13,782 bases of DNA from a virus: UHGV virus genome UHGV-0081265; one strand, written 5' to 3'. Of the stretch, positions 1,942 to 13,078 are shown piece after piece (position 1 is the stretch's first letter; each line of letters begins with the position of its first letter). The position numbers were made by a program, and so were the translations under genes. The notes beneath the pieces were generated by a model that did no database searches, was not told where the DNA came from, and saw only the letters and a list, made by a program, of their open reading frames with translations.

Positions 1942-2053
1942 TCTCTTAGTATTTCCAAGTCATCTCAAATCAACAAAACCCTTTAAAAACATAGATATTA
2001 CGCGATTTTTCGTCATTTGACGTCAACCCCTATCTCTTGAAATCAACATACAA

Positions 2054-2106
2054 TTGGGGGCACAATCGGGGGCATGTTCTGTTCGGTCTAGGAAATGTGC
2101 CCCCAA
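2054..2106. promoter_or_regulatory. GGGGGCA repeat cluster with an 11-bp inverted repeat (TTGGGGGCACA / TGTGCCCCCAA) ending at the integrase start codon; candidate Int arm-type sites and/or start-sequestering hairpin
   Basis: Direct GGGGGCA copies at 2056-2062 and 2068-2074, inverted copy at 2096-2106 abutting the ATG at 2106. Similar GGGGGCAT motifs sit on the other side of the att core at 13269-13292. Confidence 0.4.
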
Positions 2107-3287
2107 TGATGCTGAATGCCCGCAAGGTTGAAGCCGCTAAAGGAAAAGAGAAGAGCTATAAGCTATCTGATGGAGGTGGCCTGTACCTTCAGGTTGAACC
2201 TAATGGCTCGCGTTACTGGCGTATGAAGTATCGTTTTGCTGGTAAAGAGAAGCGCTTGTCCTTTGGTGTCTATCCAACAGTCACCCTCGCAGATGCCAGA
2301 CAAAAACGCGAAGACGCAAAGAAACTACTCGCAGCAGGTGAAGATCCTGGCGAAGTGAAAAAAGCAAAGAAGCATGCTTTAAACGCAGCGACCGAGACAC
2401 TTAACCCATTCAGAGAAGTGGCGTTAGAGTGGCACAAAATGAAATCTCCCAAATGGTCTGAGGGCTATGCTTCAGACATCATTGAGGCGTTTGAGAAAGA
2501 CATTTTCCCGCATATTGGACACAGACCTATAGCCGATATTCAGCCCCTAGAACTACTTGAAGTACTGAGGTTGATAGAAGCACGAGGCGCTATGGAGAAA
2601 GCGAAGAAAGTCCGTCAGCGATGCGGTGAAGTTTTCCGCTATGCCATCGTAACGGGTAGAGCAATCTACAATCCTGCACCGGATCTTGCCAGTGCGATGC
2701 AAGGACATGAAGCAGTCCACTATCCATTCCTCAAAGCCAACGAGCTGCCGGAGTTCTTTACTGCCCTTAACGCTTATTCAGGAAGCCCAATTGTATTGCT
2801 GGGGGCACATTTACTTATCCTGACGGGTCTAAGAACAGGAGAGCTAAGAGCAGGTGAGTGGCGTGAGGTGGATTTTGATAATGCGGTGTGGGAGATTCCC
2901 AAAGAACGTATGAAAATGCGACGTGCTCATATTGTGCCGCTTTCAAATCAAGCATTAGTCCATCTTGAAACCTTAAAAGAACTGACTGGAAACTATCCTT
3001 TGATGTTTCCTGGGCGTAACGATCCAAGTAAGTGCATGAGTGAGGCCAGTATTAATCAGGTCTTTAAGCGTATTGGATATGCTGGCCGTGTTACTGGCCA
3101 TGGCTTCAGACACACAATGAGCACTATTTTGCATGAAAAAGGCTTCAATAGTGCATGGATTGAAACCCAGCTTGCACATTTGGATAAAAATGCTATTCGG
3201 GGGATATACAATCATGCTCAGTATCTTGAGGGGCGTCGGGAAATGATGCAATGGTACAGTGATTTTATTGGTGGAACGGAGTCTTGA
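2106..3287 (+). CDS. int: P4-family tyrosine integrase (start moved to the internal ATG at 2106; the ORF-track start at 2037 is a TTG)
   Basis: N-terminal arm-binding-type region (KLSDGGGLYLQVEPNGSRYWRMKYRFAGKEKRLSFGVYPTVTLADARQKRED) typical of P4-like integrases. Catalytic Arg (LTGLRTGELR), His-x-x-Arg (GHGFRHT) and Tyr (IRGIYNHAQY). Lies directly downstream of the tRNA 3' fragment in the same orientation. Confidence 0.9.
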   Translation: MMLNARKVEAAKGKEKSYKLSDGGGLYLQVEPNGSRYWRMKYRFAGKEKRLSFGVYPTVTLADARQKREDAKKLLAAGEDPGEVKKAKKHALNAATETLNPFREVALEWHKMKSPKWSEGYASDIIEAFEKDIFPHIGHRPIADIQPLELLEVLRLIEARGAMEKAKKVRQRCGEVFRYAIVTGRAIYNPAPDLASAMQGHEAVHYPFLKANELPEFFTALNAYSGSPIVLLGAHLLILTGLRTGELRAGEWREVDFDNAVWEIPKERMKMRRAHIVPLSNQALVHLETLKELTGNYPLMFPGRNDPSKCMSEASINQVFKRIGYAGRVTGHGFRHTMSTILHEKGFNSAWIETQLAHLDKNAIRGIYNHAQYLEGRREMMQWYSDFIGGTES

Positions 3288-4121: not shown

Positions 4122-4186
4122 ATATTTTTGAACGATGTTTTAATCCTCTTCGTTGATATAGATTGATACATAGAGAGGAACTCATT

Positions 4187-4387
4187 ATGGGGTTTACTGA
4201 TAATCGTCCTTCTGCTGACTCGCTCATTGATATGAAATTCATTACATCTGATTGTCTTTTTACTGATAAATGGATTTATAAACTGATTTCTCTGGGACGT
4301 TTTCCTAAACCAATCAAGTTAGGTCGTATGTCCCGATGGCGTGCTGGTGACTACTATGCTTGGCGTGATAGTCATTCTTCAGAGTAA
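4187..4387 (+). CDS. alpA: AlpA/Vis-family phage transcriptional regulator / excisionase-like DNA-binding protein
   Basis: Sequence FITSDCLFTDKWIYKLISLGRFPKPIKLGRMSRWRAGDYYAW is the classic AlpA-family HTH motif. Start placed at ATG 4187, 6 nt after RBS AGAGAGGA; the ORF-track start at 4163 is a TTG. Confidence 0.8.
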   Translation: MGFTDNRPSADSLIDMKFITSDCLFTDKWIYKLISLGRFPKPIKLGRMSRWRAGDYYAWRDSHSSE

Positions 4388-4423
4388 AAACATTAGTATT
4401 AGAAGCATTTATGAGGAGTTTAT

Positions 4424-5296
4424 ATGAATTACCGTCTACAACCAGCGGGGAGTCAATACATATCCCTTCCAATTAAGAATGAATATGTTTCCGTGTTAGG
4501 AAACTATAAAGTAAGTCCGTTTAAAGAAACTCATAGCGACACTGCATGTATTGTGCGAATTATTGAAATATTTTCATTGAATAAGCTGCGCGCTAAAGGT
4601 GAAAAGCTGTATTCACTTACGGGGTTAACAGTACCTGATACGGAAGCTGTGGCGAATGAGATCAACCTGCTCCTGAGCCGTTATGCCCAGTTGTGTCGTC
4701 AGGAAGAGGAAGAGTTATCTTTCCGGCAGCGTGAAGTGACAAATGCGGAAGTTGCATGGAAAAGCACATTCTCAAAAAACGGCGTCAGTAGCATTGCTGA
4801 AGCCAAAACGAATAAAACGGGGCATGCTGAACGAGCGGATGCTGAACGGTGTTACCATCTGGCTGTTTCTCGGCTGAATGAGCAACATAGCCGACTGAGC
4901 ACAATCAAGCTTTTACCGGGCGTACTGGTCGATGAAGTTAACTACATTGGTAAGGGAGTTGAGAAGCGTTTACTGAGCATATTTCCTCAATCCGGCCAGA
5001 TCCCTGCTGATTTTATTTCTGTGTTTAATGACAGTGACGTTGTTCGTGATATTAAATTTATTACAGATGCACTCAAATCTTTGTCTGATTCTGTGAATGA
5101 AATTATTAGCCGTTGTAGCGTTCCAACTGATCGTTATGTATTAAATAACGGTGGAATGGCAAGAGCTATGGCTTACAGGGAGTACTATCGAGCAGATAAT
5201 TATGTATTACGTTCAGTCGTTAGTGACCGGGATTATGTTGAGCATGTAATGAAATACAATCGGGTTACTGAGTACAAAAATAAAATCTTTTCTTAA
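4424..5296 (+). CDS. hypothetical protein, 290 aa; possible head-morphogenesis partner of the downstream capsid homolog
   Basis: Good RBS (GAGGAG) before ATG 4424. Sits immediately upstream of the GpN-like gene (23-bp gap). No family recognised by eye. The capsid-related role is inferred from position only. Confidence 0.6.
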   Translation: MNYRLQPAGSQYISLPIKNEYVSVLGNYKVSPFKETHSDTACIVRIIEIFSLNKLRAKGEKLYSLTGLTVPDTEAVANEINLLLSRYAQLCRQEEEELSFRQREVTNAEVAWKSTFSKNGVSSIAEAKTNKTGHAERADAERCYHLAVSRLNEQHSRLSTIKLLPGVLVDEVNYIGKGVEKRLLSIFPQSGQIPADFISVFNDSDVVRDIKFITDALKSLSDSVNEIISRCSVPTDRYVLNNGGMARAMAYREYYRADNYVLRSVVSDRDYVEHVMKYNRVTEYKNKIFS

Positions 5297-5318
5297 ATAC
5301 TAAAAAAGGTGAAAAACT

Positions 5319-6323
5319 ATGTATGCCTTCAAAACTGAAAGGCCGGACGCAGCACGTCGTTATCATAATAAATTCGTCACTGGTACTAACTATCAGGAGG
5401 AATCAAACAGACGCTTTGCATTAAGCGAACCCACTGAAAATATACTGCGTACCTCAATTCTGGAATCCGGGTGGCTTATTAAAAATATCACCCTACGTGA
5501 TGTTAACGCCGTGTCAGGTAATGCCGTCAATATTGGTGCCAGTGAACTGCATACCGGACGTGTGGATGGTGGCCGTTTCCACAAAAAAATGGCAATCAAT
5601 GGTACGGAGTTCTTTCTGACAGAGACGGATACCTGCGCCCGGATCAGCTATTCCGATATGTCTCATATTTACCATACCGGCGTGCCGGATGAGTTTGAGA
5701 AAACGGTTGAGAGCTTTTTTTCCCAGGCATATGCGCTGGACATGCTGCGGGTCGGTTTCAACGGTGTGTCGATTGCAAATACTACAAACCCGGAAATCAA
5801 TAAAAAAGGCGAGGATGTCAATATTGGCTGGCATGCACTGGCGAAAGCTTACGGGAACGGGAAGCAAATCATTTCTGAGCCTGTCACGCTGGGAGAGTCT
5901 GGCACCTGGAAAAACATTGATGCTCTGGCCAACCATCTGATTACTGAGCTTATTGCTGAGCAGTTTCGTGAAGATCCCCGTCTGGTTGTACTGGTTGGGG
6001 CAGAGCTGGCAGCACATCAACGCCTGAAGTTATTTAATGCCGCAGACCGCCCGGCTGATGTGAATGCGGCACAGATGGCGACAAGTTCTGTTGCTGGCCG
6101 CTTTGCGTTTATTCCCCCGTTTATGCCGGGTAAGCGTCTGGTAGTAACGACGCTGGATAATTTGCATATTTACACTCAGGCGATAACACGGTGGTTTCGT
6201 GCTGAGTTTGATGATGAAAACAGTGAATACGTACATTCCTACCTGCGTAATGAAGGCTATGCACTCGGTGAACCTGAACTGTACGCGGCTGTCGATGAGA
6301 GCGCCCTGACGTTTGCTGATTGA
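5319..6323 (+). CDS. P2 GpN-family major capsid protein homolog (HK97-fold capsid protein)
   Basis: 334 aa with RBS AAGGTGA. Several blocks align to P2 GpN as I recall it: ALDMLRVGFNGV vs SLDFIMAGFNGV; DALANHLITELIAEQFREDPRLVVLVGAELAA vs DALVMDATNNLIEPWYQEDPDLVVIVGRQLLA; TTLDNLHIYT vs TKLENLSIYY. Similar length to GpN (357 aa). Confidence 0.7.
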   Translation: MYAFKTERPDAARRYHNKFVTGTNYQEESNRRFALSEPTENILRTSILESGWLIKNITLRDVNAVSGNAVNIGASELHTGRVDGGRFHKKMAINGTEFFLTETDTCARISYSDMSHIYHTGVPDEFEKTVESFFSQAYALDMLRVGFNGVSIANTTNPEINKKGEDVNIGWHALAKAYGNGKQIISEPVTLGESGTWKNIDALANHLITELIAEQFREDPRLVVLVGAELAAHQRLKLFNAADRPADVNAAQMATSSVAGRFAFIPPFMPGKRLVVTTLDNLHIYTQAITRWFRAEFDDENSEYVHSYLRNEGYALGEPELYAAVDESALTFAD

Positions 6324-6336
6324 CTTAGCGACAGAA

Positions 6337-6363
6337 AGACCCGCTCAGAGGCGGGTCTCGTTT
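6337..6363 (+). terminator. putative rho-independent terminator after the capsid-homolog gene
   Basis: 8-bp stem AGACCCGC / GCGGGTCT with 6-nt loop, followed by a short T-tract (CGTTTA). Confidence 0.55.
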
Positions 6364-6520
6364 ACAGCATCAGGAAAAATGAAGAACTATTTTTAAGCAG
6401 AGGCTTAAGCATGCCAGCGTTAATTAATCCAGGCAATCATCAGTTTTCGGTTATAAATTTCTTGCCTCACAAGGAATACGCGGGATATAGTTCAAAGGTT
6501 GCCGCAAAATCGGCAGCCGG

Positions 6521-6786
6521 GCGTAGGAACCCGTGTAATCTAACGGCGACACAACACGCGCCAGGCGTGTTTTTTTGTGTCGTAGCTTTGACTCACCTTC
6601 GTTTTATGGTGTGGTGGCTGACTGCATGTTTTTATTTTTTACGCCACATCATCAGAATTATGGTAGTCCAGGCGGGGCAGCTTTCGGGCTGGCCGGTATC
6701 CGTTAGAGCCGGTATTCCTACCCCCGTCTGGGCTACCACCCATGAGCGTAGGAACTCCGGTGGTAGCGTTACCCGCTATCTAACGG
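6521..6786 (+). ncRNA. P4-type RNA immunity region: two direct repeats (seqA-like 6521-6546, seqC-like 6746-6786) flanking a complementary seqB-like element (6700-6721); candidate CI-RNA-like immunity RNA
   Basis: GCGTAGGAAC...ATCTAACGG occurs twice. Between them, CCGTTAGAGCCGGTATTCCTAC is the reverse complement of both sub-blocks (GTAGGAA and TCTAACGG). An internal terminator (6554-6576) and a 9-bp stem (GCTACCACC / GGTGGTAGC, 6731-6767) are present. Position upstream of the small-ORF/primase operon matches P4 organisation. Confidence 0.45.
6554..6576 (+). terminator. rho-independent terminator inside the immunity region
   Basis: Stem ACACGC / GCGTGT with 5-nt loop, followed by TTTTTT. Confidence 0.7.
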
Positions 6787-6797
6787 AGGTTGCCATT

Positions 6798-7001
6798 ATG
6801 GCTACAGTCCCTGCTTTATCTCACCCTGAATTTACCTTTGTTTTTCTGGCTGTCCGCCGTACAGACCGTGATGCCTGTCCACGTCCTGTGCGTGTAATCG
6901 CAGACTGCGAGCATGCTGCACGACTCAAACTTGCCACTGAATTTATCCTGAGCTTTGCTGCCCGTATCCCTGTGAAAAGCGCCGGGGAGGTGGTTGCATG
7001 A
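6798..7001 (+). CDS. small hypothetical protein (~67 aa), first gene of the replication operon
   Basis: ATG 6798 preceded by GGAGG. This is the C-terminal in-frame part of the 196-aa ORF-track entry, whose upstream part overlaps the terminator and repeats and is probably not translated. Stop overlaps the next start (ATGA). Confidence 0.5.
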   Translation: MATVPALSHPEFTFVFLAVRRTDRDACPRPVRVIADCEHAARLKLATEFILSFAARIPVKSAGEVVA

Positions 7002-7234
7002 AATCCATGAATTTTAAGCAAGGCTGCATATTGAGCGAACTAGGTGAGAGTCGTCTGTTACGGGCGGCACTGGCCAGTGAGTTTCTTGCAGAGGTCCTGT
7101 CCGTTCCCACAGTGAATGGAGCGAGAACTGTTTCAGCGGAAGGCGCTGCGGCTTTAGTGGCCTGTATTGCCGAACAACTGGATGGCGTTGTTAAGGAAAC
7201 CAGCACAATTAAGGGAGTGATGCGCGATGAATAA
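6998..7234 (+). CDS. small hypothetical protein (78 aa), translationally coupled
   Basis: ATG overlaps the upstream stop (ATGA), RBS GGGGAGG. Position is analogous to the epsilon/derepression genes of P4-like elements; no motif recognised. Confidence 0.55.
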   Translation: MKSMNFKQGCILSELGESRLLRAALASEFLAEVLSVPTVNGARTVSAEGAAALVACIAEQLDGVVKETSTIKGVMRDE

Positions 7235-7637
7235 TAATCAAAATTTAAAGGCGCATGCTTTACGAACAGCAGTCTTACGGTACTACATTGCTGATTCATT
7301 CATTTCCTTAATGGAGCGTGTTCATAATGAACCTGTTTATATTGAAGATGGCGAACGAATAGAACTCACCCACGAAAAAGTGGTGAGTAATATTATTTAC
7401 CATATTGAAATGCCGTGGGTGAATGAGTTTGGGGCTGATGCAGGTTGCATACTGGCCGCAGAAAAACTGGAAAAAATGCTTAAACCGGGCTTTATGTCAG
7501 AAAATATTCGCCTGTCAGTTTTTGGTGTCACAGAGATGCGTGAGGTTTACCGGGATATTATTTTCGGTGCACCTGATGGCGAACTACCCGAAGGTTTTGA
7601 GTTTGTGAAGCCGGAAGGTCAGGAGGTGCTGCTGTGA
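7227..7637 (+). CDS. hypothetical protein (136 aa), translationally coupled to the primase
   Basis: Start overlaps the upstream stop. Its own stop TGA overlaps the GTG start of the primase gene. Confidence 0.6.
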   Translation: MNNNQNLKAHALRTAVLRYYIADSFISLMERVHNEPVYIEDGERIELTHEKVVSNIIYHIEMPWVNEFGADAGCILAAEKLEKMLKPGFMSENIRLSVFGVTEMREVYRDIIFGAPDGELPEGFEFVKPEGQEVLL

Positions 7638-10321
7638 AAACACCGTCTGTATCCACGATTTCCGGGGCTGCAATTGGGCGCTGGCCTTATATCCTGTCAG
7701 CATTAGGTATCAAAGTACCGTCCGCAGGACATCATGGGGCTTGCCCTGCCTGTGGTGGCAAAGATCGCTTTCGGCTGGACGATAAAGCGGGGCGTGGGAC
7801 GTGGTTTTGTAATCAGTGCGGTCATGGCGATGGTCTTGATCTGGTTCGTCTGGTGACAGGAAGAAAGATAAAAGAAGTCGCCGGGATGGTATCTGAGGCG
7901 CTTGCATTACCAGAAATACAGGAGAAGCCCGCTTTGCCTGCCAGGAAAAAGGCCGCAGGAAAAGAAGCGGGCGCGGAGCGATATACCAGACTCAGACAGC
8001 AGTCCTGCAATGGTGAACCGGTCTATCTGACAAACAAGGGCTTACATGGGTATTCACTTCCCTTGCTGTCACAGCCTTTGAATCTGGCCGGAATAACATT
8101 TTCCTCCGGTTCATTACTGCTGCCGTTGACGGATATTTCCGGGAATATTACTGGTGGCCAGCTTATCAATCCTGACGGGGATAAAAGTCTGCTGCCCGGT
8201 AGCCAGCTGTCTGGCGCATTCATTGCCCTGACCGATATACCCGCTGAAACACCTGAACAGGTGATTATAACAGAGGGTTTTGCCACGGCGCTTACCGTCA
8301 GTCTGCTGACTGAAGGATGGATCGTGGCGGCTGTTGCTGCCACCAATTTACTGAAGGTGACGGAGCAGATCCGGAAACGCTGGCCGGAAACCCGGATCAT
8401 TCTGGCTGGCGATAATGATCTGGCTGACGGGAAAGAAAACACCGGGCGTATTCAGGCAGAGAAAGCTGCCAAAGCAGTGGATGGCTGGGTAACGCTCCCT
8501 CCGGTACGCCATAAGGCTGACTGGGATGATTATCGGCAGGAAGTGGGGAAAGAACGGGCGAGAGATGCCTTTCGTGAAGAAATGACGCTGCATGGCAAAG
8601 GGCAGACCCGTTTACCAGAAGGGTTCCGGCTGACAAAAGAATATTTGTGGTACGACAAGCTGGTTAATAAGTCTGATGGTGATACGGAGATACGAAATAT
8701 CAAAATTTGCAGTCCGTTACGGGTGACGGCAATCACCAGTGATGCTGATGGAAGTAATTACGGGCGTTTGCTGGAATGGGAAGATACCAACGGAAACAGC
8801 CGTAAATGGGCAATGCCAATGGAGATGCTGGGTGGCAGCGGGGAAGAGCTGCGCCGCGTTCTGCTGGTTAACGGGCTTTCTTACATCAACATTAACGGTA
8901 TGGCCAGAGCATTCCTTATGGAATATATCTCGCTGTGTAAACCGGACAGAAAAGTAACCTGTGTAAATAAAACGGGCTGGCACGGCGGGGTTTACGTTCT
9001 CCAGGATGAAGTGATAGGACGTGAAGCCCAGTCAGTCATCTTACAAACGTCGAGTGTGCAGGGGCGTGATTTTCGTGTCAGCGGTACATCAGAGGACTGG
9101 CGTGAAAATATAAGCCGTTACTGCATAAATAATGCCCGTCTTGCCTTTGCGGTGAGTCTGGCATTTGCTGCCCCCCTTCTGAAACTGGTTGGTATCGGCG
9201 GTGGAGGTTATCACCTCAAAGGGGAATCAACGGATGGTAAAACCACGACGATGAAAGTGGCTGCTTCAGTATGTGGTGGAACAGATTTCTGGCATACGTG
9301 GCGGGCGACGGGGAATGCCTTAGAAGGAACGGCGAGCCGCCGTAATGATGCCACGCTGATGCTGGATGAAATCCGGGAGGTTGACGGCAGGGAGGCGGGG
9401 AATATCGCTTATATGCTGGCTAACGGGCAGGGCAAAGCCAGAGCCAGAACAGATGGTTCGGTAAGGGAAACCAACCGCTGGAATCTGTTGTTTCTGTCCA
9501 CCGGGGAACTGTCACTGGTAGAACATGCGGCAAGCGCCGGGGAACGTACGTATGCCGGGGTTGAGGTCAGAATGATCCAGATCCCAAGCGATTCGGGCAA
9601 ATATGGCGTGTTTGAAGAACTTCATGGCTTCAGTAGCGGGAAAACCCTGGCAGAGCATCTTGAGCAGCATGTAGCGCATTATCATGGCGCACCATTCCGC
9701 GACTGGCTGCATTGCCTGACCGCTGATCTGCCGGAACTGACCAGCCAGGCCAAAGCCTTATTGAAAGAGTACACCCGAAGGCTGACGCCGGAAAATGCCG
9801 GGAATCAGGTTGGCCGGGCTGTTACCCGTTTTGCTCTGGTTGCAATGGCCGGGGAACTGGCCACAAAAGCGGGCATCACAGGATGGCCGGAGGGAGAGGC
9901 CTTTCGTGCCGCCCAAAGTTGTCTGGCTGCATGGATGGCTGACCGGGGCCATACAGCTAATCAGGAAGATAAAGCGGCACTTGAACAGGTACGGGACTTC
10001 ATGACGCGTAATCAGTTCAGTCGGTTTGCTGACTGGAATGACGACAGGAACCGGCCTGTTTCAATGATGGGATTCAGAAAAGTCGATAAAGGAGACAACG
10101 TGACAGAGCCGGTTGTGACGTTCTACGTTCTCCCATCAGGCTGGAAGGAGATCTGTAAGGGATTTGATTCGCGTAAGGTGGCTAGGTTGTGTGTGGACGC
10201 GGGCTGGCTGAAACCCGGTGAAGATGGCCGGACGCAAAACAGCATTCGCCTGCCAGAAATAGGGCTTAAACGTGTGTACCAGTTCAATACGCAGGTACTG
10301 GGAAGCGCCGAACCGGAGTAA
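7634..10321 (+). CDS. P4 alpha-like bifunctional DNA primase-helicase
   Basis: 895 aa. N-terminal zinc ribbon (CPACGG...CNQCGH), TOPRIM motifs (IITEGFATALTVS; ILAGDND), P-loop helicase Walker A (GESTDGKTT) and Walker B (LMLDEIRE). GTG start 8 nt after AGGAGG. Confidence 0.9.
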   Translation: MKTPSVSTISGAAIGRWPYILSALGIKVPSAGHHGACPACGGKDRFRLDDKAGRGTWFCNQCGHGDGLDLVRLVTGRKIKEVAGMVSEALALPEIQEKPALPARKKAAGKEAGAERYTRLRQQSCNGEPVYLTNKGLHGYSLPLLSQPLNLAGITFSSGSLLLPLTDISGNITGGQLINPDGDKSLLPGSQLSGAFIALTDIPAETPEQVIITEGFATALTVSLLTEGWIVAAVAATNLLKVTEQIRKRWPETRIILAGDNDLADGKENTGRIQAEKAAKAVDGWVTLPPVRHKADWDDYRQEVGKERARDAFREEMTLHGKGQTRLPEGFRLTKEYLWYDKLVNKSDGDTEIRNIKICSPLRVTAITSDADGSNYGRLLEWEDTNGNSRKWAMPMEMLGGSGEELRRVLLVNGLSYININGMARAFLMEYISLCKPDRKVTCVNKTGWHGGVYVLQDEVIGREAQSVILQTSSVQGRDFRVSGTSEDWRENISRYCINNARLAFAVSLAFAAPLLKLVGIGGGGYHLKGESTDGKTTTMKVAASVCGGTDFWHTWRATGNALEGTASRRNDATLMLDEIREVDGREAGNIAYMLANGQGKARARTDGSVRETNRWNLLFLSTGELSLVEHAASAGERTYAGVEVRMIQIPSDSGKYGVFEELHGFSSGKTLAEHLEQHVAHYHGAPFRDWLHCLTADLPELTSQAKALLKEYTRRLTPENAGNQVGRAVTRFALVAMAGELATKAGITGWPEGEAFRAAQSCLAAWMADRGHTANQEDKAALEQVRDFMTRNQFSRFADWNDDRNRPVSMMGFRKVDKGDNVTEPVVTFYVLPSGWKEICKGFDSRKVARLCVDAGWLKPGEDGRTQNSIRLPEIGLKRVYQFNTQVLGSAEPE

Positions 10322-10347
10322 TTATCGCGTGAGTCTTATTTTTATGA

Positions 10348-10540
10348 GGTAACACTGGTAACAGAGGTAACGCCCGCTACTGATGCGGTTCTTCAGTGTT
10401 ACCAGTCAAAAATACTGACTGGTAACAGAGGTAACAAAAAATGGTGCGTTACCACGCGTTACCTCTTGATTATGTTAACTGGTAACAGATTAAATCCTTT
10501 TAAATCAATAGCGTTACACGTGTTACCAGTGTTACACGTT
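10348..10540. repeat. iteron array (GGTAACA / TGTTACC heptamers, at least 10 copies, direct and inverted); candidate crr/ori-type binding sites for the primase-helicase
   Basis: Copies at 10348, 10357, 10366, 10397 (inv), 10421, 10430, 10448 (inv), 10457 (inv), 10481, 10522 (inv). 17-bp direct repeat CTGGTAACAGAGGTAAC at 10355-10371 and 10419-10435. 12-bp perfect inverted repeat TGTTACCAGTCA / TGACTGGTAACA at 10397-10408 and 10416-10427. Lies immediately 3' of the primase gene, as P4 crr does; P4 iterons (TGTTCACC) are similar. Confidence 0.6.
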
Positions 10541-10603
10541 CAGAACAAGAGGTAGGGACCCAAATCCCTTCTTCTGGCGGGCAACAGTAAAGGGCACAGA
10601 ACG

Positions 10604-10876
10604 ATGAAGATGATGAGAATGTACTGCCCCACATGTCAGGCAGTAGCGCGGATAGGTAAAACAAACAGGAAACACCCACAACTGTACGATGTGTACTGCT
10701 ATTGCTCTAATGTGGAGTGCGGTCACTCGTTTGTGATGAATGTTGCTTTCTCCCATTCCGTTAGTCCAAGCGCGCTGAACGGGCAGGGGAGGGTTAAAGA
10801 GCTAATTGATGCCATTCCACCCGAGGAGCGGGAAAAGGCTTTAAAGTTGCTGCTGGCTGCGCAAAAGAATGGGTAA
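10604..10876 (+). CDS. Ogr/Delta-family zinc-finger late-gene transcriptional activator
   Basis: Cys spacing C-x2-C-x22-C-x4-C (YCPTCQ...CYCSNVEC) is the Ogr/Delta signature. Size (85-90 aa) is Ogr-like. The true start may be the internal ATG at 10619. Confidence 0.8.
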   Translation: MKMMRMYCPTCQAVARIGKTNRKHPQLYDVYCYCSNVECGHSFVMNVAFSHSVSPSALNGQGRVKELIDAIPPEEREKALKLLLAAQKNG

Positions 10877-11482
10877 AGTATGCGTCGGGAATGGCCGATC
10901 CGTTCCCGGAACCTGACCACAGGATTTCAGTTTATACGAACATAAAATTATTATTTTTCAATTTGTTATGTTTTTCGTATTTCACGAACCTTCATAAAAT
11001 CACACACCTAAAATAAATTATCCATTTAATATCATAGTGTTGCGTATTCAGGCCACAAATGCGACGGACAGTAAAACTGAAAAAAGCTGAATTTCTTTTC
11101 ATTCTTTTCAGTTCCTGCCTCGCAGTGCATCCCCAGCACGGACGCGGGCTGGCGGTATCGTTTGTAAAAAATCACAACTGAAAAATTTTAGTGATATGAA
11201 AACCGCAGGCGGGTGCGGTGTAGTGCGATTTTGGTCTTATAAAGATTTGTGTCTTAAAATTAATTAATGGTTTTAACTATTTGTTTGGAATTAATTTCAC
11301 AATGTACATGTTTGATATGAATGATAAATTAGTATATGCTTGAGTAAAGAAATGATGTATATTTTTATGGTCGAGGTGTAAGCGCTTTTTTGATGTATTT
11401 AATAGGTGTATGTTTTTATTAATCGGAGAATTGTTAATATTTATAATTGTTATAAAATAGAAATCGCTATGAAGGTGTGTAT

Positions 11483-12085
11483 ATGAGAGATAATTCAAAT
11501 AAAGTAAAGGGGTATGTAAGACGTAAAGTTGATTTGTATATTTTGTCATTAGCTATTTTATTTTGTTTTTTTATTTTTATTACAATAAAATTTCCTGTGT
11601 GTTTTGGGGCTAAATGTGAGTTCATTGGCTGGTCTTTGCTGTTGAAAAATAATATTGTTCCCTTGATTTGCGTAGGGTTGCTTTTATATTGTGGGGTGGC
11701 CTACAAAAGGTTTCAATATGACACAAATAAAAGTGTCGAACTTCCAATGAAAATAACAAAAATTGAAAAAATAAATTATGAGCACCTTACCTTTTTAGCC
11801 ACATATATTATCCCATTGATTACATTTGATTTTGAAAAAGAAAGGTATGTGATCGTTCTAGCAGTTCTCTTGATAATTATGGGTATTATTTATATTAAAA
11901 CGGATTTGTTTTACGCTAATCCATCCTTGGCTTTATTAGGGTTTAATATTTATAAGTTGGATGTGAGTATAACAGGAGGTATTAATAAAACAGGGCTAAT
12001 ATTAATTACTAGGCGACAGTTAAAAGAAAATGACATGATAAGTTATATTGTGCTTGATGAAAGAGTTTACTATTCTGGAGATTAA
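11483..12085 (+). CDS. small 4-TM membrane protein (200 aa); first gene of an AT-rich two-gene cargo; KwaA-like architecture, unverified
   Basis: ATG 11483 after RBS GAAGG. Four hydrophobic helices (LYILSLAILFCFFIFITI, IVPLICVGLLLYCGVAY, LTFLATYIIPLITF, YVIVLAVLLIIMGIIYI) then a ~60-aa soluble tail. Very AT-rich. A 10-bp gap separates it from the next gene. Confidence 0.65.
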   Translation: MRDNSNKVKGYVRRKVDLYILSLAILFCFFIFITIKFPVCFGAKCEFIGWSLLLKNNIVPLICVGLLLYCGVAYKRFQYDTNKSVELPMKITKIEKINYEHLTFLATYIIPLITFDFEKERYVIVLAVLLIIMGIIYIKTDLFYANPSLALLGFNIYKLDVSITGGINKTGLILITRRQLKENDMISYIVLDERVYYSGD

Positions 12086-12094
12086 GGATTAAAT

Positions 12095-13078
12095 ATGTCA
12101 CCGCAGCAATTGGATAAAAAAGGCTTGGATGATAATCTAAGTTATTATATTAATAATAAAGATGATATTTCTGTTATTGTTTATGCCATTCTAAAAAATA
12201 GCCCTGTTGCATATCGAATGGATATAGAGGGAAGCGCTCAAGATGGCCTCAAAGAATTATTTTTAGAAAGTATAAAAAATAATATCATTGATAATGATGA
12301 TATCAGTATTTTACCTCTTTCGTCAGCAGATGAAAGAAATAATGTTATTTATCATTACGATATTGAATGGCCTGATGAGTTAACCTCCATGCAAAGTATG
12401 CTTGGGCAGCAAGGGGAGAGTGTTTTTGATTTTAATGTACAAAATATTGAAGATATTAGAGTGTTGCTAATTTGTATTGGTAATGTACAACAACAAATTA
12501 TACTCTACAAAACAATGGCTCCAGTCAATATTTTCTCTCGCTCAGGTTTTTTTCTAAAAAAATCAGCAACAAGACTTGAGGAAATTGAAGATGATTTTTT
12601 TCGAGTTAGTGATAATTTTCAAATTATCAAAGTTGAAAATGATTTATATGTGGTAGATCTTAAGTTAATCGAGAAAATGTTTGGTTTTCACGAGGTTATC
12701 AAAAAAGAGGCTACACTTGGCATGAATGCCATTGAGAGTATGAATATTATCACTGATATAAATGTGATAAAAGAACTAATAGATGATGTAAAATATGCTA
12801 GAAAACTAACAAGGATAGCAAAATCTTCTCCAGTAATATTAGCTAATATTGAAAATGAAAAAATTATAGAGTTTTGTAAAACCTACCCAGTGTTGGTCAA
12901 TAGAATCAGATTTAATGAAGATGGAACAAAGATCGCACTTGACACGAAGGTTTCAAAAGATCTATTTATTAAAATTCTGATGGATGATTTTTTAACCTCA
13001 CAGTTGACTCAATTTTATTATGAGAGTCTAGCAAAAGATGCAGTAAAAATAGCCGCTGATAATACTAAAGAAAACTAA
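12095..13078 (+). CDS. 327-aa soluble protein, second gene of the two-gene cargo; size and context fit KwaB (DUF4868) of Kiwa, but domain not confirmed
   Basis: RBS AAGGA before ATG 12095. Acidic, AT-rich, no TM segment, no obvious nuclease or NTPase motif by eye. Followed by a terminator hairpin. Lies in the variable position next to attR. Confidence 0.65.
   Translation: MSPQQLDKKGLDDNLSYYINNKDDISVIVYAILKNSPVAYRMDIEGSAQDGLKELFLESIKNNIIDNDDISILPLSSADERNNVIYHYDIEWPDELTSMQSMLGQQGESVFDFNVQNIEDIRVLLICIGNVQQQIILYKTMAPVNIFSRSGFFLKKSATRLEEIEDDFFRVSDNFQIIKVENDLYVVDLKLIEKMFGFHEVIKKEATLGMNAIESMNIITDINVIKELIDDVKYARKLTRIAKSSPVILANIENEKIIEFCKTYPVLVNRIRFNEDGTKIALDTKVSKDLFIKILMDDFLTSQLTQFYYESLAKDAVKIAADNTKEN

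Follow-up and report, generated by a model that had tools for sequence, protein, structure and literature searches.

Origins of the SaPI satellites consist of 6-12 iterons that lie immediately downstream of rep and are opposed on both sides of an AT-rich region, and the SaPI Rep protein, a self-loading helicase, binds these iterons without ATP through a C-terminal winged helix (PMC9371898). The same ori organisation is reported to be shared by the PICIs of E. coli (PMC6092414), one of which, EcCICFT073, has a pri-rep-ori segment that sustains a plasmid only when rep and ori are both intact (Fillol-Salom et al. 2018, PMC6092414). Gram-negative PICIs are laid out as int, alpA and pri, with the ori downstream of pri, and often carry a capsid gene, matches to C4/isrK and primases that include DUF927 types (PMC10111431, PMC6092414).

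When the origin of EcCICFT073 was located in the CFT073 genome, it was found to occupy a 288-bp gap after the gene, with about 12 GGTAGAYA iterons in both orientations and AT-rich stretches. The arrangement in P4 is a different one, as both an ori and a crr array are needed, which are some 4.7 kb from each other. The crr element (4291-4590) lies directly 3' of the alpha gene (4636-6969, minus strand) and consists of a pair of 120-bp direct repeats with a 60-bp spacer between them.

Here, a stretch of 13,782 nucleotides of viral DNA (UHGV-0081265, the 13.8-kb window) was analysed, in which a dense iteron array follows a primase-helicase gene. An initial annotation of this DNA had likened the array to P4 crr and had marked it as a likely replication cis-element. 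As judged from slot-by-slot conservation and from a core that covaries with the C-terminal winged helix of the adjacent protein, the latter proposal is very probably right, and the closest counterparts of the array are the origins of PICI and SaPI satellites rather than crr.

Results

Gene content of the element

The genes for a P4-type integrase (int, 2037-3287), an AlpA-like protein (4163-4387), a full-length P2-family major capsid protein (5319-6323) and the primase-helicase (pri-rep, 7634-10321) are all encoded on the + strand. Between the capsid gene and two small ORFs that precede pri-rep, Rfam matches to the isrK RNA (6498-6575, +) and the C4 RNA (6656-6743, +) were detected. The array follows pri-rep, and after it come an Ogr/Delta-like zinc-finger gene (10604-10876, +; Pfam Ogr_Delta, 5e-14), which lies outside the putative origin, and KwaA/KwaB.

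The unidirectional int-alpA-pri-ori order, the small size and the capsid cargo are those of a Gram-negative PICI. The element is best read as an integrated phage satellite of this layout that has an Ogr-like gene and RNA immunity of the P4 type, and the combination of the Ogr/Delta gene with a P2-family capsid gene suggests a P2-like helper. Over the 701 bases of positions 10200-10900, which include the array, the chromosome of E. coli AH04 matched with 100% identity. Copies with at least 95% identity were present in about 450 of the 5426 complete E. coli genomes, every one of them chromosomal.

The capsid gene is preceded by an ORF of 290 aa for which neither Pfam nor PHROG gave a match (region 4424-6323). 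Further downstream (region 6411-7001), an ORF named 'Icd-like cell division inhibitor' in RefSeq overlaps the strong Rfam matches to isrK and C4, and P4-type immunity RNAs are more likely to be encoded there than an Icd-like protein. Directly after the ogr-like gene, the KwaA/KwaB (Kiwa) anti-phage pair forms a low-GC cargo (11477-13078; 25-40% GC); these names are taken from the RefSeq annotation of E. coli AH04, whose identity to the window was established for positions 10200-10900 only.

At the left end, two tyrosine recombinase genes are placed back to back (731-1834, - strand; 2037-3287, + strand), which suggests either two tandem islands or a remnant beside the satellite's own integrase. 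In an identical E. coli copy (locus L001, 28.7 kb), IS elements were found in place of the paired recombinase region. The P2/P4 cos 19-mer, GGCGAGGCGGGGAAAGCAC, had no match in the whole window when up to 3 mismatches were allowed, so the element may be defective; a packaging signal, if any, would be different from P2/P4 cos or lie outside the window.

Iteron array downstream of pri-rep

The gap between the TAA stop codon of pri-rep (10319-10321) and the ATG of the ogr-like gene (10604) measures 282 bp (10322-10603), exactly as first annotated, and the Pfam domains of both flanking genes agree with their earlier description. Seven exact copies of GGTAACA/TGTTACC were counted in it, fewer than the 'at least ten' that had been reported, together with 10 copies of GGTAAC; the number rises to 12 only if degenerate positions are allowed ([GT]GTAAC[AG]). 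All of these sequences fall within 10345-10539, the array starting 24 nt past the pri-rep stop codon, and alignment of the 12 copies yielded an iteron unit of approximately 10 bp, A-S-W-G-GTAAC-R.

The array opens with three forward copies, iterons 1 (TGAGGTAACA, 10345-10354), 2 (ACTGGTAACA, 10354-10363) and 3 (AGAGGTAACG, 10363-10372), followed by the reverse iteron 4 (+ strand TGTTACCAGT, 10397-10406). Next come two forward copies, iterons 5 (ACTGGTAACA, 10418-10427) and 6 (AGAGGTAACA, 10427-10436), two reverse copies, iterons 7 (+ strand CGTTACCACG, 10447-10456) and 8 (+ strand CGTTACCTCT, 10457-10466), and the forward iteron 9 (ACTGGTAACA, 10478-10487). Beyond a 23-nt AT-rich block, the array closes with three reverse copies, iterons 10 (+ strand CGTTACACGT, 10512-10521), 11 (+ strand TGTTACCAGT, 10521-10530) and 12 (+ strand TGTTACACGT, 10530-10539), of which iteron 10, with a TGTAAC core, and iteron 12 are degenerate.

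Longer repeats are built from these units. A direct repeat that had been given as 17 bp is in fact 18 bp long (ACTGGTAACAGAGGTAAC; 10354-10371 and 10418-10435), its second copy being opened by iteron 5. The perfect 12-bp inverted repeat of the initial annotation was recovered at 10397-10408/10416-10427 and corresponds to iterons 4 and 5, its left and right arms, facing apart. An outer inverted repeat (40 nt, 75%; 10334-10373/10511-10550) is formed by the two outer iteron triplets.

Over the whole window, 9 heptamers were found against 1.38 expected, a number that none of 200 shuffled sequences reached when this suggested check was run, and GGTAAC hexamers amounted to 15 against 4.5 expected. 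The density of GTAACR was likewise concentrated, with 12 occurrences in one 250-bp interval and 2 in the next best interval anywhere. A density scan, in which P4 ori and crr were both recovered as a control, detected a single array in the window, in agreement with the earlier statement that no second one is present there, and also a single one in the 28.7-kb L001 locus and in the +/-3 kb flanks of the relatives described below.

The main AT-rich segment (GATTAAATCCTTTTAAATCAATA, 10488-10510, 83% AT) contains a conserved AAATCAA core and is placed between iteron 9 and the converging iterons 10-12, off-centre in the array; it is the proposed melting site. Shorter AT runs part the inner iteron groups. 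Within the gap, the 20-mer of lowest stability is 10491-10510 (85% AT), which ranks 421 of 13,762 window-wide and is thus unremarkable for the window. Three boxes were kept in every iteron class, at fixed positions relative to the array: a left border box (GTCTTATTTTTA, 10333-10344), which is AT-rich and coincides with the second least stable 20-mer of the gap, a middle box (TTTTAAATCAA, 10497-10507) and a right border box (TTCTGGCGGGC, 10572-10582).

Comparison of the gap DNA with 50,697 phage records, P4 included, returned no similarity match. An Rfam search of the gap gave nothing, the window matches being only the upstream isrK and C4, and no canonical DnaA or IHF boxes were present. A scan of the gap for sigma-70 promoters and terminators revealed no + strand promoter and only weak hairpins built from iterons. 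The right border box was complementary to the codons for LPEIG (10252-10267) at 10-13 of 16 positions; as this lies at the upper edge of the shuffled controls (means about 9-10, maxima 11-13), no claim is made for it.

Domains of the Pri-Rep protein

Pri-Rep has 895 aa and matched the Pfam families Zn_Ribbon_Prim, Toprim_3 and DUF927, with no Pox_D5 or D5_N domain found in the same search. Its Zn-ribbon and Toprim primase region (aa 1-317) showed 39% identity to P4 alpha, and no alignment to alpha was obtained past aa 317. The rest of the protein consists of a DUF927 helicase (aa ~331-650), whose Walker A sequence is GESTDGKT, and a C-terminal domain (aa ~690-895). When the C-terminal domain was compared by hhalign with the C-terminus of alpha, no similarity was seen (probability 0.3%).

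The sequence matches of Pri-Rep in the PDB were SCCmec Cch (5dgk) and SaPIbov1 Rep (8tch). An AlphaFold model of aa 690-895, based on a 16-sequence alignment, had a pLDDT of 85 and ended in the order strand-helix-helix-strand-strand of a winged helix. Foldseek searches of the PDB with this model returned only 8tch and 5dgk, both with a probability of 1.0 over about 200 columns, and identity in the fold alignment to the SaPI and Cch C-terminal domains was 13-15%. On these sequence and fold comparisons, SaPI Rep and SCCmec Cch, and not P4 alpha, are the homologues of the DUF927 helicase and the C-terminal domain. Domain by domain, the predicted initiator is therefore a mosaic, in which a P4-alpha-type primase is joined to a helicase and putative origin binder of the SaPI-Rep type.

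The terminal winged helix of the model (aa 826-890, encoded at 10109-10303 on the + strand) is the proposed iteron reader. A putative recognition helix was assigned to aa 846-855 and a beta-hairpin wing to aa 869-884.

Conservation of the array in relatives

A scan with a degenerate pattern, using one genome per species, yielded 55 loci from many Enterobacterales genera, with protein identities of 60-93%. Nearly all intact loci have 10-13 iterons that start about 25 nt past the primase stop codon and share the slot order, and the position of the array directly after the primase-helicase gene is common to about 45 relatives. The boxes are also shared by the relatives, as GTCTTATTT on the left, AAATCAA inside the AT-rich block and TTCTGGCNGGC on the right; relative to the primase stop codon, the right box lies at +252 to +293, except in L035, where it lies at +348. 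Among the loci of the GGTAACA class (72-93% protein identity), the GTAAC core columns were 97.5% conserved versus 70.9% for the other columns of the array.

Four loci seemed at first to be devoid of an array. In three of them (L038, L044 and L055; region about 5670-7050), an integrase-like ORF is inserted between the primase stop codon and the array, which has up to 13 copies of GTGGGAACA; by this insertion, the putative origin was shifted away from the gene by about 1.1 kb. The remaining locus is a degraded copy in a symbiont.

The DUF927 protein of a Serratia sp. Ag1 locus (L049, 2614-4695) has 693 aa and lacks the Zn-ribbon/Toprim domain, yet the locus keeps 12 GGTGGAACA iterons; the primase domain is a separable module. 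An ogr gene directly downstream of the array is missing in many loci. As read from the L049 locus and the loci without ogr, the array travels with the DUF927 and C-terminal module, and not with the primase domain or ogr.

A similar layout was found on the protelomerase-bearing, linear plasmid pCECT9189-4 of Photobacterium toruni (L062, 3100-3495), where about 14 GTGTAAC/GTTACAC iterons, arranged around an AT-rich centre, come after a DUF927 gene (33% identity). The arrangement of rep followed by iterons therefore reaches well beyond satellites. Two other plasmid records were set aside. A sequence labelled 'plasmid: 118' (L060, OX345456.1) encodes a 99.8% identical Pri-Rep and was discarded as evidence of autonomous replication, because it is a 7-kb linear contig from a fragmented Salmonella assembly. 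On the small plasmid pTAO100 of Nitrosoglobus, a DUF927 gene occurs together with RepM and has no array beside it, so that this plasmid was uninformative.

Covariation of iterons and winged helix

The flanks are nearly identical across lineages, but the iteron core varies by lineage and falls into eight classes, namely GGTAACA, GGTGTAACA, GGGTAACA, GGTGGAACA, GTGGGAACA, GGATACA, a mixture of GGTTACA with GGTGACA, and GTAGTACA. Some of the class switches were seen between near-identical elements: Pectobacterium L021 (GGTAACA) and L008 (mixed) with Brenneria L009 (GGATACA), Proteus L018 (GGTGTAACA) with L020 (GGGTAACA), and Xenorhabdus L010 (GGTAACA) with L015 (GGTGTAACA).

In switched pairs, the winged helix (aa 826-890) was less conserved than the remainder of Pri-Rep (for example, 0.83 versus 0.96 for L021/L009 and 0.89 versus 0.99 for L021/L008), the reverse of what was observed in pairs of the same class (0.98 versus 0.97). 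The Pantoea pairs of classes GGTGTAACA and GGTGGAACA showed no excess of winged-helix divergence. Substitutions linked to the switches map to residues 846, 850 and 854 of the predicted recognition helix and to 861-871 and 878-880 of the wing. Two residues partition the classes: at 866, the three classes whose core is extended have K and the five others R, and at 880, four classes carry R/K and four W/F. This protein-iteron covariation is good but not conclusive evidence that the winged helix reads the iterons, as it is drawn from roughly five independent switches and the Pantoea pairs lack the excess.

In Pectobacterium polonicum (L008, 5685-5900), GGTTACA, GGTGACA and GGATACA are mixed across the 12 slots, and the flanks are nearly identical to those of L021, where all iterons are GGTAACA, and L009, where all are GGATACA. 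The array of L008 may be an intermediate of a specificity switch or may reflect relaxed specificity. Two elements were found together in genomes of Pantoea stewartii (L026/L053), P. leporis (L042/L043) and Enterobacter intestinihominis (L004/L050), and their iteron classes differ in all three, which is not significant given the class frequencies.

As a tentative interpretation that we regard as somewhat less probable than its opposite, the family could represent a natural series of origin-specificity switches, in which all 12 iterons are replaced in concert with substitutions of the winged helix. The switches lead from GGTAACA to GGATACA, GGTGTAACA, GGGTAACA and others in elements with 95-99% identical Pri-Rep proteins and nearly identical flanks. 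The accompanying substitutions in the recognition helix and the wing number only 4-11 and include R866K and R880W/F. If this were true, the series would provide a readable recognition code for SaPI-type initiators, and the switching could have been driven by escape from replicon cross-talk between co-resident satellites.

Discussion

Given the single array, the putative reader domain of the SaPI-Rep type and the iterons arranged around AT-rich DNA 3' of rep, a PICI/SaPI-type origin is the best reading of the fragment. We estimate at roughly 80% the probability that the array at 10345-10539 and its conserved AT-rich flanks constitute the replication origin of the integrated satellite. Like the origins of that type, the array is located immediately 3' of the initiator ORF, and its 12 iterons are opposed, two or more of them lying on either side of an AT-rich region; the likeness to a self-loading helicase with an iteron-reading winged helix is one of homology and fold only.

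By analogy with these systems, Pri-Rep, encoded just upstream, would bind the 12 iterons through its C-terminal winged helix after induction and would form a self-loading hexameric helicase of the SaPI Rep/Cch type. The adjacent AT-rich DNA, most likely 10488-10510, would then be melted, and priming could be carried out by the protein's own N-terminal Toprim primase.

Other functions were weighed against that of an origin. The array could be an auxiliary site like crr, a replication enhancer that needs a separate true origin with the same iterons, to which it would be looped by the initiator. Of the initial statement that the array mirrors P4 crr, the 3' position stood, as crr follows alpha in the way that the array follows pri-rep. 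The alpha-like N-terminal primase domain and the isrK/C4 RNA immunity upstream of the primase gene are further likenesses to P4, and GGTAACA is one base off the P4 type I sequence GGTGAACA, which also resembles the class GGTGGAACA, with tandem copies at 9-10 bp spacing. The rest of the comparison did not hold. P4 has two arrays, whereas no separate ori with the same iterons was detected in the window, in the 28.7-kb E. coli locus or in the flanks of the relatives. The 120-bp direct repeats are absent, the longest direct repeat being the 18-bp one in a gap with loose modules of about 60 bp only. The type I iteron TGTTCACC was not found, with 0 copies of GGTGAACA in the gap, and the TGTTACC motif is one base shorter than it.

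The DNA-binding domains set the two systems further apart. In alpha, the helicase and origin-binding part is of the D5_N, DUF5906 and Pox_D5 type, whereas the window protein has DUF927 and a SaPI-type C-terminal domain, and no Pox_D5-type C-terminus was found in it. As the reading domains are unrelated, the likeness between the iterons is unexplained and was not taken as evidence of membership. The resemblance to crr is positional only, and a crr-like role is very unlikely.

A second explanation, no more probable than a crr-like role, is that of a transcriptional control region, in which the repeats would be operators of the ogr-like gene bound by Ogr or Pri-Rep, with no origin function. The array is directly upstream of ogr and, since no sigma-70-like promoter or convincing terminator was found inside the gap, ogr expression must cross the gap or start near it. 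One TGT-N12-ACA sequence, the shape of Ogr/Delta sites, occurs at 10530-10547, but it was rejected as an operator because it is not conserved, being present in only 3 of the 21 loci that bear ogr. Against such operators, the array is kept in relatives without ogr downstream, the iteron classes track the winged helix of Pri-Rep, and 12 sites over 195 bp with AT-rich spacers make an origin-like architecture.

The iterons of plasmids also serve handcuffing and incompatibility. A site for copy control, incompatibility, partition or packaging, bound by Pri-Rep or another factor with initiation taking place elsewhere, would fit this background and the differing iteron classes of the three genomes with two elements. 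Such differences are, however, equally expected for origins, no other candidate origin was found in the element, and no partition or terminase genes were found near the array; we give this explanation the same small chance as the two before it. That the repeats arose by chance or are decaying without function can be dismissed, given the shuffling result, the conservation of slots one by one across genera and the switching of whole arrays in concert.

The origin reading places a probable origin and its putative reader domain in a satellite family that is widespread in E. coli and other Enterobacterales, and it corrects the comparison with P4 crr, which is attractive but misleading. The layout was already known from PICI and SaPI satellites, and the find is thus solid but ordinary; a search of the literature located no test of this origin or of its DUF927/alpha-primase mosaic initiator. 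This mosaic links replication modules of P4, Gram-negative PICIs and Gram-positive SaPIs. The most useful by-product is the concerted switching of iterons and winged helix between near-identical elements, and the paired variants provide material for specificity swaps and for the design of orthogonal satellite replicons.

The gene order of Gram-negative PICIs such as EcCICFT073 matches that of the window element, with int, alpA, a C4/isrK region, a capsid gene, pri and an ori in a gap of ~285 bp after pri. The iteron of EcCICFT073 is GGTAGAYA instead of GGTAACA, and features additional in the window element are an Ogr/Delta gene and a capsid gene of the P2 family. The Pri-Rep of EcCICFT073 belongs to the D5_N/DUF5906/Pox_D5 type and has no detectable similarity to the window protein, and therefore the analogy is one of layout and not of homology.

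Compared with the SaPIs, the window element has a Gram-negative host, a fused primase of the P4-alpha-like Zn-ribbon/Toprim kind, longer iterons (about 7-10 bp) and several AT-rich spacers instead of one central block. What it has in common with them is the homologous helicase and C-terminal domain, supported by sequence and fold (8tch and 5dgk for SaPI Rep and Cch), the short iterons of both orientations that surround AT-rich DNA directly after rep and, as in SaPI5, the fusion of a primase to Rep.
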